The notes beneath the pieces were generated by a model. It was not told the DNA's origin. It saw only the letters and a program-made list of their open reading frames with translations, and searched no databases. A stretch of 23,534 nucleotides of DNA from Pseudomonadota bacterium (GTDB lineage: Bacteria; Myxococcota_A; Polyangia; Palsa-1104; JAEUJZ01): the NCBI GenBank assembly GCA_035345715.1, contig DAORCY010000081.1, forward strand, positions 1 through 23,534. Reading direction: 5' to 3'. The position numbers and the translations under genes were made by a program. The number at the start of each line of letters is the position of its first letter. The first letter of the stretch is position 1. Shown here piece by piece: positions 11,048-13,984 of the stretch.

Positions 11048-13984
11048 ATGAACGAGCGTGGCAGTCGCAAGATTCCGGTAACGGAACGACAGTTTCTGTG
11101 GGTTCAGGACGACGACAAAGGCGAAGTAACGCTGCATGTCGGTCCGACGATGGTGTCGCCAACCGCTGCCGATCGTGTGGTGATCGACGACGGGGTAGGC
11201 AGCTTCCGCGAGGACACCTCGGGCCGCCCGCAGATGATGATCGAGGTCGGCGATCACCAGTACGCGGTGCTGTTCAATCCGCTGCTCGAAAACGATGGCG
11301 GGCCCAATGGCCGCTTCCGCGTCGGTCGCAATGAAGCGCGACCTTTAAAAAACGGCACGCGCGCGATGATTCCGGGGCCGTGTAGTTTCTTTCTGCGTCC
11401 GGGTCAGCGCTGCGAAGTCCGCGACGCCCACGAGCTGTCGGCCAGCCAATATCTGGTCGTCAAAGTGTATGGTCCGGTCGATCGGACTGCGCCGTATTTT
11501 GATGTGACGGCACGATCGGCGGCGATTACGCGGGCGACCGCCGAAGCGCTGGATGGTCGTCCGACGCCGCTGCCGGAAAAGGGCCTGGAACAGGATCTCA
11601 AGCGCGGTCAGCTCATCGTCATCCGCGGCATCGACACCCAGTTTTACATTCCACCGACGGGCGTTGACATTGTTCCTGATACATCGGTCGATGAATCCGG
11701 TGCGACGGTCAGCGCGACGACAGCGCAGAAGCTGCTTCAGCAGATGCAGGCGCAGCTTAGCAAGCCGACGCAAGCGCCGAGCCCGCCCCCACCTGCGCCC
11801 AAGAAAATCGCCGCGGACGAATCGCTAGAGATTTCGCTCGATGAGGATGAAGCGCAGCAGGAACGCAGCCGGGCACCCCGTCGCGCCGTCGCGCAGTACC
11901 AAGCCGAAGCGGCGTCGCAGATGGTGGATCAGTCGGCCCGGACGCGGCAGCGGGTTGCGCCTCCGATCCCGTCCGCACCACCACCGCCGGCTCCGCGCGG
12001 AGCCGGTGCACCGATGCCACCCGCATCGCCAGTCCCAGCAACGACAAGCGGCGGTGTTCCGGTTGGCGCAGCGCTTTCGTCCCCGCCCACACCGAGCGTA
12101 TCCGTCGATGATGTGCTGTCTTCCGATGCGCTGCGCAAAGCAATCGAAAAAGAAGCACGGCAAGCGCGTCTTATCCGCAGCGCGGTCGTATTGGGAGAAA
12201 AGGAATACTGCGTACTCATCGATCCGGACGGCAAGCGCGAAATCAAGGTCGGTCCGGCGCGCGTGTTCCCCGGTCCCTACGACACGTTCATGATCAAGGG
12301 ATCGCGCAACCGCGTCTACGATGCATACGAACTTCTGCCGCAGCGCGCGCTGTGGCTGCGGGTGATTTCGCAGAGCAGCCGCGATGAGATGGCGAAAAAA
12401 ATGCCGCGCGGAGTCGAGCTGGAAAAAGAGCAGTTCTTCCCCGGTGACGAGCTGCTTTTGTCCGGCGTTTCCGGCTTCTTCTTTCCGTTCAATGAGATCG
12501 AAGTACTGTCGCCGCACACGGGCGAAGCAGTGGTTGGAAACGATCACTCCAGCGTCTTTATCGAAGCGATAGGAATCGATCAAAAGAGCGGCATCTATGT
12601 TCGCGATCTCACGACCGGAGAGGTCCGTTTGATTCGCGGCAAGCAGTCCTATCTGGTCGATCCGCGCAAAGAAATCCACATCACGCGGACGGTCAATCAC
12701 CACGACTGGAATCTGTGGATCGCCGCAAGTGAACCGCACAAACGGAACAGCGGACATGTGACAACGCCCTGGGCGATTTCGATCATTGTGCCACACAACA
12801 CGGCAGTACTGGCGACGAGTGCAGCCGGTCAACGGGTGATCGAAGGACCGTGCGTCACGCTGCTGGAATACGAAGAAAATCTGGTTCCGCTCAAGCTGTC
12901 CACAGGCACGCCGAAGGATGACAGCGATCCACTCTTTACGTGTTTTCTGCGCACGATTGGGAATCGGGTCAGCGATGTCATCGAAATCGAATCCGCCGAC
13001 TTTGTTCGCATCCGATTGCGCATCACGGTCAGCGTGACCTTCTTGCGCGATCACAGAGACAAGTGGTTTAACGCGGAAAACTACATCCAAGTGCTCTGTG
13101 ATCACCTGCGATCGATCGTTCGCAGCCGCACCCGCACGCTATCGCTTTCGTCGCTGTGGCCGCAGCTTGCCGCGGTGGTGCGCGATACCATATTGGGACC
13201 GCGAAACGATGCCGATGGGAGTCGCAAAGGACGATTTTTTGCGGAAAACGGAATGCTCGTTCACGAAGTCGAAGTACTCGATGCAACGATCGAAGACGAG
13301 CTGATCGCCGAGATGATGCGGAGTGTGCAGCGGGAGTCTGTGACGCTTACGATCGGGGATCGTCAAGCACAGGAAAAGCTGCTTTCCGCCAAGCTGAGGG
13401 CCGAGCTGGAGCTAAAAAATCACGAGCTTTTGGCAGAGGTGCAAAAGCACGAAGCCAAGCTCAAGGAACTGGAGCGCAAGCTGTCGCAAGAAGCGCGTCT
13501 TGGCGAGCTGCGCGATCGGGAAGCGATGGCCAAAGAGCAAGCGCAGCTTGTGGCGGAAAGAGAAGCGAGCGATCTGCATCGGAAACTGGAGCGTGAGAAT
13601 CTGGCGCAGACCGCAAGCCGCGAAGCGCTGCTCAAAGATGCGGCGACCAAAGCGCAGGCGGCGCAAGCTCTGCATGAAGAGGAGTTTTCGCACCTAAGCC
13701 GGGTCAAGGGTCTGGACATGGCGCTGCTCGACGCACAAGCACGCGCTGTGGTGGCAGAGCGAGGCGCGGTTCAGCCGCAGCTTGTCGAAGCGCTCACTGC
13801 GCTGGGAGACAAAGCACTGCTCAGCGAAGTGGCGCAGAACATGAATCTGGTGTCTCTGTTCCGTGGCAAAGAAGCGGGTGAAATTCTCAAGGAAGTGGTG
13901 GGAGGAACGCGCTTTGCACCTGCACTGACCGAAGCGCTGACCGCCAAAGCCAAGCCAGAGACCCGCCCCGAGCCAAAGAAGTAA
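11048..13984 (+). CDS. major vault protein (MVP) homolog, 978 aa, with internal Pro/Ala-rich low-complexity insert
   Basis: By-eye alignment to eukaryotic MVP is good for several segments. [57 protein letters not shown] matches human [76 protein letters not shown] matches GIYVQDVKTGKVRAVIG. The shoulder region [22 protein letters not shown]...[37 protein letters not shown] matches VVSYRVPHNAAVQVYDY...[35 protein letters not shown]. The N-terminal repeats also align ([25 protein letters not shown] vs [25 protein letters not shown]). The C-terminus is a heptad-rich coiled coil ([40 protein letters not shown]...), like the MVP cap-helix. There is no signal peptide. Confidence 0.85.
   Translation: [978 protein letters not shown]

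Follow-up and report, generated by a model that had tools for sequence, protein, structure and literature searches.

A gene of a Polyangia bacterium that encodes a relative of the eukaryotic major vault protein (MVP) raises the question of whether a long Pro/Ala-rich segment within its product has taken the place of the central repeats of the protein or has been added to an array that is short without it. The gene lies in the window, the 23,534-nucleotide stretch of DNA (contig DAORCY010000081.1 of assembly GCA_035345715.1) that was analysed here. A first-pass annotation of the window had described an MVP-like protein with a shortened repeat array in which a flexible, low-complexity linker appeared to replace the central repeats. 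It is argued below that the array is indeed short but that the linker is a lineage-specific addition, and that it may act as a built-in tether carrying a conserved arginine motif. This explanation taken as a whole, in which anatomy and evolution are blended with tether function, is given a probability of roughly 0.6. Its parts do not stand equally: the anatomy of protein and insert and the direction of evolutionary change are regarded as very probable, and the ligand-tether function is tentative and less likely than not.

A bacterial major vault protein homologue and its repeats

The product of the open reading frame (ORF) at 11048-13984 is a bacterial MVP homologue. Pfam MVP_shoulder (PF11978) matches residues 639-749 (E 2.6e-18, 66.6 bits against a cut-off of 25), with further matches to Vault_3 at residues 580-625 (30.6 bits, cut-off 28.8) and Vault_4 at residues 507-539 (23.2 bits, cut-off 22.9). 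A single-sequence phmmer search aligned residues 380-934 to rat MVP 274-841 (E 2.5e-21), and a profile of 84 diverse family members found rat, human and rabbit MVP at E about 1e-68. Foldseek searches with an AlphaFold2 (AF2) model recovered the vault MVPs of human, rat and rabbit (E 5.5e-36 to 3.8e-28) and, less strongly, crystal structures of R1-R7 (E about 1e-13). The order of the parts is the same as in eukaryotic MVP (4V60, 9BW5, 9Z4W), with beta repeats followed by an SPFH-like shoulder, a long cap helix and a cap-ring region. The two differ in that the bacterial protein has seven repeats and an insert of about 155 aa, and structure-based identity is about 17%. The protein therefore has the sequence and fold of the MVP family but not the nine repeats of canonical vault MVP. 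The shoulder and helical domain were also matched to flotillin, prohibitin, stomatin and HflK/C (E 4e-7 to 1e-5), cage-forming proteins in which an SPFH domain is likewise joined to an oligomerising helical domain. These cages have an N-terminal membrane anchor, whereas here seven MVP repeats precede the SPFH-like domain. No hydrophobic N-terminal segment was seen by inspection, no transmembrane predictor having been run, and the polar N-terminus leads into the beta repeats. The start codon is backed by an N-terminus that is conserved in close homologues.

The repeats were counted on an AF2 model computed from the diverse 84-sequence alignment (mean predicted local distance difference test score (pLDDT) 80, predicted template modelling score 0.60). 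An earlier run with 72 close homologues (58-90% identity) gave a pLDDT below 50 for residues 1-431 and was unusable for this purpose. In the later model pLDDT exceeds 90 for residues 11-210 and 381-750 and falls below 50 for residues 215-221, 240-280 and 282-350. Three all-beta units precede residue 211, the third with an expanded beta2-beta3 region, and four lie between 376 and 637. The N-terminal 221 aa alone gave no Pfam match, and the repeat nature of this part is therefore taken from profile-profile comparison and the model. Profile positions 12-122 are colinear with rat 10-105 (R1-R2), a weak match with a domain i-Evalue of 12. Within the protein, R2+R3 (residues 58-215) can be aligned to R6'+R7' (373-493) at an hhalign probability of 93.6% (E 2e-7), and the array thus consists of a pair of repeat types that was duplicated. 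The three units before the insert are the R1-R3-like repeats of the first-pass annotation. After the insert the annotation had expected R7-R9-like repeats, and here it was one short, since four R6-R9-like repeats are found and residue 380 of the query aligns to rat MVP 274 by phmmer (profile position 222 to rat 275). The rat domain boundaries of Tanaka et al. from 2009 reportedly place R6 at 272-322, and we take rat 274/275 to be the start of R6. By alignment and model, then, there are seven predicted repeats against nine in rat MVP, with the equivalents of R4 and R5 absent. The array is short, as the annotation had it, and nine contiguous repeats with the Pro-rich region as a loop inside one of them, the arrangement it had named as speaking against its view, were not found. 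Its placing of a shoulder and cap helix after the repeats also agrees with the MVP_shoulder match and with a predicted helix at residues 751-906; published domain boundaries put the cap helix of rat MVP at residues 647-802. Three C-terminal helices (910-939, 943-951 and 957-965) are modelled beyond it at pLDDT 50-65, and an LGDKxLL...NMNLVSLF signature is conserved there in the alignment. The R7-type repeat of the family also matches rat R3 and, much more weakly, rat R5 (i-Evalue 34). This would fit rat R3-R5 as tandem copies of one type, of which the bacterial protein has a single copy.

Whether the missing repeats and the linker are connected can be judged from relatives. A family profile was searched against 1.84 billion cluster representatives and found 1213 clusters at E <1e-3, 578 of them at E <1e-30. 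The best 150 representatives all score above 318 bits, compared with 114 bits for rat MVP on this profile. Sub-profiles for the N block (residues 1-214), the insert (215-371) and the C block (372-640) were run on the best representatives with hmmsearch, and were colinear in about 117. The N and C blocks abut, with a gap of at most 5 aa, in 91 of the 117 representatives that have both anchors, as against a gap of 157 aa in the query, and the majority consensus (...FYIPPTGxEVVPDxxxGxxVRxAVxLxxxEYC...) lacks the insert. Measured against such relatives the inserted segment is about 153-157 aa long (roughly 215/218-374). Insert-less bacterial proteins (for example P0219, P0142 and P0162) are 27-37% identical to the query, with which they share all seven repeats, the shoulder and the cap helix, and their two repeat blocks match the corresponding query sub-profiles over the full length. 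Residues 215-374 are missing from them and they come from many phyla, whereas the insert-bearing clade is essentially Polyangia, and many of them have a longer loop in the R8-like repeat. The seven-repeat layout thus exists, and even prevails, without the linker, being the state of the largest and most diverse clade. This makes the insert an addition at the junction and not a replacement of R4-R5.

These comparisons bear directly on the earlier proposal that the central repeats (R4-R6) of a nine-repeat ancestor were lost and a flexible linker put in their place, giving a hinge or a shorter or different wall. It is true that rat MVP has more repeats than this protein, and that the segment occupies the place expected for rat R4-R5. 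Repeat number also varies here within the bacterial family: P0172 (866 aa) and P0176 (898 aa) carry 3-4 extra tandem copies of a unit of about 45 aa directly before the C block, which match the first part of that block, while their N-block match is truncated. Because insert-less relatives share the same seven repeats, however, the absence of R4-R5 and the presence of the linker are independent. Four repeats and not three follow the insert, and the insert holds conserved helices and a constrained motif for which a mere hinge would have no need. Replacement of central repeats by a linker is for these reasons considered very unlikely.

The direction of change was examined with a rough, midpoint-rooted neighbour-joining tree built on repeat and shoulder columns. 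Every member of the query clade has an insert, of 89-419 aa. In a middle clade the insert is either missing or is an unrelated, helical one about 100 aa long. The large distal clade, with about 85 representatives, is free of inserts except in P0161, where the 48 additional residues resemble part of a repeat. When a distal member served as the query of a further search, at least 6076 clusters were recovered at E <1e-10, of proteins 810-860 aa long, and the few named clusters are labelled Parcubacteria, Eremiobacterota/Xenobiia, Anaerolineae, Desulfobacterales, Bacillota, Candidatus Venteria and Polyangiaceae. By comparison, 76 genome loci with a query-type protein are almost all from Polyangia/Myxococcota, including Polyangium spp., Byssovorax, Minicystis rosea (CP016211, locus L055) and a Nannocystaceae metagenome-assembled genome (MAG); a few loci are in MAGs labelled Planctomycetota or Thermoanaerobaculia. 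Judged by sequence, seven repeats are the norm of a very large bacterial family that spans many phyla, and on grounds of parsimony the insert is read as an addition made in the query clade, mainly in Polyangia.

Earlier reports based on sequence and modelling describe bacterial MVP homologues from Myxococcales, Cytophagales and Oscillatoriales (PMC3762200; bioRxiv 10.1101/872010; bioRxiv 10.1101/2023.11.10.566534), and the insert-less group was discussed by Daly et al. 2013 (PMC3762200) and Sokolskyi 2019 (bioRxiv 10.1101/872010). The repeat count, the insertion hotspot and the motif are not described in these three reports, and no structural or experimental work on bacterial vault-like particles was found in the literature.

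Anatomy and conservation of the insert

The insert follows strand GVDIV (residues 205-209) of repeat 3 and precedes strand IRSAVVL (376-382), which leads into the R6-like repeat. In the internal duplication recovered by hhalign, IRSAVVL corresponds to QMMIEV at the R1/R2 boundary, and we take its rat counterpart to be VVPITTL at the R5/R6 boundary. Published boundaries assign such junction strands to domains inconsistently. Whether the insert is said to lie within repeat 3 or between repeats depends on the domain to which IRSAVVL is assigned, and what can safely be said is that it lies where repeat 3 meets the repeat after it.

The first-pass annotation placed a Pro/Ala-rich disordered insert at 11720-12100, which corresponds in frame to residues 225-351. 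The peptides it quoted are present and the model gives a pLDDT below 50 there. Residues 236-352 contain 21% Pro and 18% Ala, while over the rest of the 978-aa protein Pro stays below 5.7% and outside the eight commonest residues. Its description of this region as one low-complexity segment holds for part of the insert only. Two tracts (238-252 and 304-350) are truly rich in Pro and Ala, but the 51 residues between them form an acidic block and then a basic one, which ends in a constrained motif, [VI]DQSARxRxR[VK], and two conserved helices flank the whole (Table 1). A further low-confidence helix is predicted at residues 279-290 in the basic segment. Searches of the insert alone against the PDB and Pfam returned low-complexity or insignificant matches only (Cox6b at E 0.04, IFT57, KfrA_N, PRIMA1). 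A PDCD5 profile match (E 0.45), with a possible resemblance to the DQSARxR core, was treated as chance.

Could so abrupt a change of composition be an artefact, whether of gene fusion, frameshift, mis-assembly, an intein or a mobile insertion? The GC content of the insert (0.70, against 0.58 elsewhere in the gene) is the sole indication of this kind. Set against it are a single uninterrupted ORF, in which GC content at third codon positions is 0.667 both inside and outside the insert, the absence of intein and transposase domains in Pfam searches, and the same architecture in isolate genomes (Polyangium spp., Minicystis rosea) and many independent MAGs. An artefact is extremely improbable. A repeat scan found no tandem DNA repeat that accounts for the Pro/Ala tracts, only a single 17-nt array. 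Given this and the equal third-position GC content, the Pro/Ala-rich segment is taken to be native coding sequence, and DNA slippage was rejected as the origin of the tracts. Long reverse-strand ORFs that overlap the insert are unsupported and typical of GC-rich DNA.

The annotation had asked whether the insert is conserved among bacterial homologues, and the answer depends on the circle that is drawn. Most wider relatives, as described above, have no insert, but among the 120 homologues listed (57-100% identical to the query, the insert being measured between anchors at 215 and 372) it is present in every one, 92-169 aa long and constant in layout. In a 72-sequence alignment Q295, R298 and R300 never vary, nor do E367 and R374 of helix B, and conservation is at least 90% at A297 and R302. 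A strict regular expression for the motif finds it in 113 of the 120 homologues, and the other seven have near-variants. Helix A is conserved as SAxxARQLLxQ across the homologues and in the wider clade P0121-P0129. An acidic window comes before a basic window in 115 of the 120, charge segregation lies above that of 95% of shuffles in 91, and the median net charge of the insert is -2. The Pro/Ala tracts are poorly conserved (identity 0.14-0.25): spacer 1 differs in length and sequence among homologues, and spacer 2 ranges from 14 to 57 aa at a mean of 58% Pro plus Ala.

The same division is seen in dN/dS, which was estimated from eight closely related coding sequences at proportions of synonymous differences (pS) of 0.5-0.73, near saturation. 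Values of 0.082 for the basic motif and 0.088 for helix B fall close to those of the folded repeats (0.046-0.087, with 0.046 for the N-terminal block). Helix A gives 0.27, and the Pro/Ala and acidic tracts 0.21-0.34 (spacer 1 about 0.21, spacer 2 about 0.34, the latter being 25% gapped in close relatives). Constraint on the motif and on helix B is as strong as that on the folded repeats, and the spacers drift in length and sequence. The short arginine motif, between Pro/Ala spacers that vary but are never missing, is the only strongly constrained element of a polyampholyte loop that is carried on a two-helix stalk.

This pattern speaks against the view that the insert is functionless, a permissive surface junction having gathered low-complexity expansions in GC-rich genomes. 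Such a view would account for the variable, poorly conserved and relaxed Pro/Ala tracts with their gaps. It would also account for a site that is an insertion hotspot, with unrelated inserts of 15-419 aa elsewhere and none in most relatives. It does not account for an insert that is never lost among the 120 listed homologues (among the 76 genome loci, whose matches are nearly full-length, a direct check covered four), for invariant Q295, R298 and R300 and a dN/dS of 0.08 in motif and helix B, for a charge-block order kept in 115 of 120, or for flanking helices that are both conserved even where the centre between them differs. Neutral accumulation is accordingly judged unlikely.

Table 1. Features of the MVP-like gene, with residues of the product, positions in the window and the basis of each assignment
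Feature	Residues	Positions	Strand	Basis
MVP-like ORF, complete, 978 aa + stop	1-978	11048..13984	+	translation, Pfam, phmmer, profile, Foldseek
N-terminal block, three predicted MVP repeats	1-214	11048..11689	+	AF2, hhalign, weak profile match
Predicted repeats in N block	R1 about 8-67, R2 about 68-127, R3 about 128-211		+	AF2
Whole lineage-specific insert	215-374	11690..12169	+	sub-profile hmmsearch against insert-less relatives
Flanking helix A (predicted)	223-237	11714..11758	+	AF2 helix, pLDDT about 53-62
Pro/Ala spacer 1, 60% P+A	238-252	11759..11803	+	composition
Acidic block, net charge -7	253-272	11804..11863	+	composition
Basic segment, net charge +5, 7 Arg	273-303	11864..11956	+	composition, alignment
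Core motif [VI]DQSARxRxR[VK], end of basic segment	292-303		+	alignment
Pro/Ala spacer 2, 55% P+A	304-350	11957..12097	+	composition
Flanking helix B (predicted), runs into junction strand	353-375	12104..12172	+	AF2 helix, pLDDT 64-85
C-terminal repeat block, junction strand IRSAVVL and predicted R6, R7, R8, R9 equivalents	376-637	12173..12958	+	phmmer, profile, Pfam, AF2
Shoulder (SPFH-like) domain	638-750	12959..13297	+	Pfam MVP_shoulder, Foldseek
Cap-helix domain, single predicted 156-residue helix	751-906	13298..13765	+	AF2; aligned to rat cap helix
C-terminal helices, putative cap-ring equivalent	907-965	13766..13942	+	AF2

Other inserts and the gene neighbourhood

Unrelated inserts of 15-419 aa are found at the same junction in other clades. 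Within the query clade the divergent proteins P0122, P0124, P0125 and L066 keep both flanking helices and differ in their centres. P0124, P0125 and L066 lack the motif and show, by eye, an acidic patch followed by a basic patch in the centre. P0122 (1129 aa) has a charged coiled-coil insert of 319 aa at this junction (residues 221-541), the centre of which gives a PspA/IM30 match (PF04012) at E 2.2e-11 and 44 bits (cut-off 34), a score to which coiled-coil bias may contribute. In a different clade an insert of about 92-111 aa occupies the same place (P0131, P0132, P0136-P0140, P0143, P0145, P0147, P0157, P0160 and P0194). This insert is conserved and helical-looking (…SGxLKIENLKxxLxKAGxxxDY…ALxxAL…), and searches with the whole P0131 and P0137 proteins gave no Pfam match over it. 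Proteins of the P0131 type have an additional insertion within the N block near profile position 176.

Several genomes hold more than one such protein. Paralogue pairs occur in single Polyangiaceae/Myxococcota MAGs (L038/L075, L062/L076 and L040/L066), one member of each having the query-type insert. In the second paralogues L075 and L076 the insert is helical and about 95 aa long (P0128 type), and in L066 it is charged and disordered, about 235 aa long, and lacks the DQSAR motif. Polyangiaceae MAGs also hold insert-less copies of the distal clade (P0345, P0376, P0395). Length varies at a second place as well, since most insert-less relatives (for example P0233, P0247 and P0248) have 40-130 extra residues in the R8-like repeat, between C-block profile positions of about 190 and 205. 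This extra loop recalls the long loop of rat R8.

The gene neighbourhood is not conserved between the window and two related loci, and no vault RNA, TEP1 or PARP4 genes adjoin the MVP-like gene in any of the three. Upstream, a 556-aa product (9204-10874, +) has a lipoprotein-like N-terminus (…LGSALLMSACSS) and a DxSxS motif like that of metal-ion-dependent adhesion sites in von Willebrand factor A domains (DILFLVDNSPSM). It gave no Pfam match and is not a conserved neighbour at the two other MVP-like loci. Directly downstream on the opposite strand, at 14190-15152, lies an EF-hand protein with several EF-hand matches (E 2e-21). The listed TTG start of this ORF overlaps the start of a cytochrome ORF, and its true start is for this reason probably further in. 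A run of multihaem cytochrome genes follows at 15004-21374 (+), in which the ORFs at 15004-17433, 17343-19064 and 20313-21374 match MtrC/MtrF domains II/IV and cytochrome c7/c3 and an unannotated ORF of 420 aa (19054-20316) stands between cytochrome ORFs. The content of the run suggests an extracellular electron-transfer cluster. Further upstream, the reverse strand has an ORF with a weak match to a TonB-dependent-receptor beta-barrel (4597-6717; 26.2 bits, slightly short of the cut-off of 27) and another that encodes a trypsin-like peptidase (3536-4510).

A possible role for the insert

The role proposed for the insert starts from its position. Should subunits of the protein associate side by side by way of the shoulder and cap helix, as in MVP, each would project one flexible tether of about 110 residues from the third repeat ring, next to the waist. 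The two flanking helices would form a stalk, the Pro/Ala tracts would be stiff, non-collapsing spacers, and the arginine motif would be a short recognition element for a polyanionic or acidic partner. Nucleic acid (RNA or DNA) and polyphosphate are candidate partners, as are acidic surfaces on proteins, among them the wall of the shell itself, and the preceding acidic block may serve as an intramolecular competitor. The insert would then be a built-in multivalent tether for cargo or partners and not a hinge. The basic segment has the features of an Arg-rich peptide, with seven Arg in residues 273-303, a disordered context and invariant R298 and R300.

A similar arrangement is familiar from other shells. 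Viral capsid N-terminal arms and encapsulin cargo-loading peptides present a charged, conserved peptide on a flexible spacer once per subunit. The motif of the insert differs from these in being internal and not terminal, at about 7 Arg in 31 residues, and the likeness is one of analogy and not homology. In the human vault the MINT domain of PARP4 docks electrostatically in the lumen near the waist, on an acidic stretch of MVP repeats 3 and 4 (PMC12280208). The insert resembles this docking in its place in the repeat 3-4 wall region, in its basic and acidic elements and in the long disordered chain that runs from the attachment point. PARP4, however, is a separate protein that is bound non-covalently and sub-stoichiometrically, whereas the insert is covalent in every subunit. 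There is no sequence similarity between the two, and docking in the human vault is lumenal, while the insert could be oriented to lumen or exterior. By position and charge the insert could nevertheless be a built-in counterpart of a PARP4-type adaptor.

The presence of an acidic and a basic block side by side is also compatible with a latch, in which the basic motif would bind an acidic wall or block belonging either to the subunit next to it or to the other half-shell, and so staple the particle or regulate its closure. In keeping with this, the blocks are paired and leave the insert nearly neutral (the median net charge given above), the insert, at the third repeat, lies near the waist, and the interior of the human vault is described as largely acidic (PMC12280208). 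The AF2 monomer model shows no docking of this kind, however, and insert-less relatives presumably assemble without a latch, so that an assembly function of this sort seems improbable. Equally doubtful is the more specific form of the tether proposal, in which the motif would face the lumen and hold cargo or nucleic acid, making the Polyangia protein a self-loading shell and the junction a general plug-in site across clades. The modules plugged in on that reading would be the helical domains of about 100 aa, the PspA/IM30-like coiled coil and the charged disordered arms, an extension that we hold with the same reserve.

Several points weigh against the tether explanation in either form. Cage formation by this protein is putative, and the junction may face the lumen or the exterior. 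The motif is undocked in the AF2 model at a pLDDT of about 35-48, and the model therefore gives no structural hint of a binding site. Profile, PDB and Pfam searches found no significant similarity of the insert to known nucleic-acid-binding families, and gene context, which changes from locus to locus, points to no partner. With pS near saturation the dN/dS values are rough, and since the tree is a midpoint-rooted neighbour-joining tree, it is parsimony and the breadth of the insert-less clade that lead us to call the insert derived.

Vaults still have no clear function, and in the literature found bacterial MVP homologues have so far been studied only in silico. The family described here is very large, extends over many phyla and is built on seven repeats rather than nine, and the comparison of seven with nine suggests that eukaryotic R3-R5 arose when one repeat type was expanded in tandem. 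Insertions recur at the junction of repeat 3 and the next repeat, and this site could be a tolerated display position in engineered vault nanoparticles. In one clade, which includes culturable Polyangium and Minicystis species, a tethered and constrained arginine motif has become fixed at this site. The motif offers a concrete, mutable handle on what a bacterial vault-like shell binds or encloses and, if the tether were indeed lumenal, would give direct experimental access to the contents of a bacterial vault-like particle.

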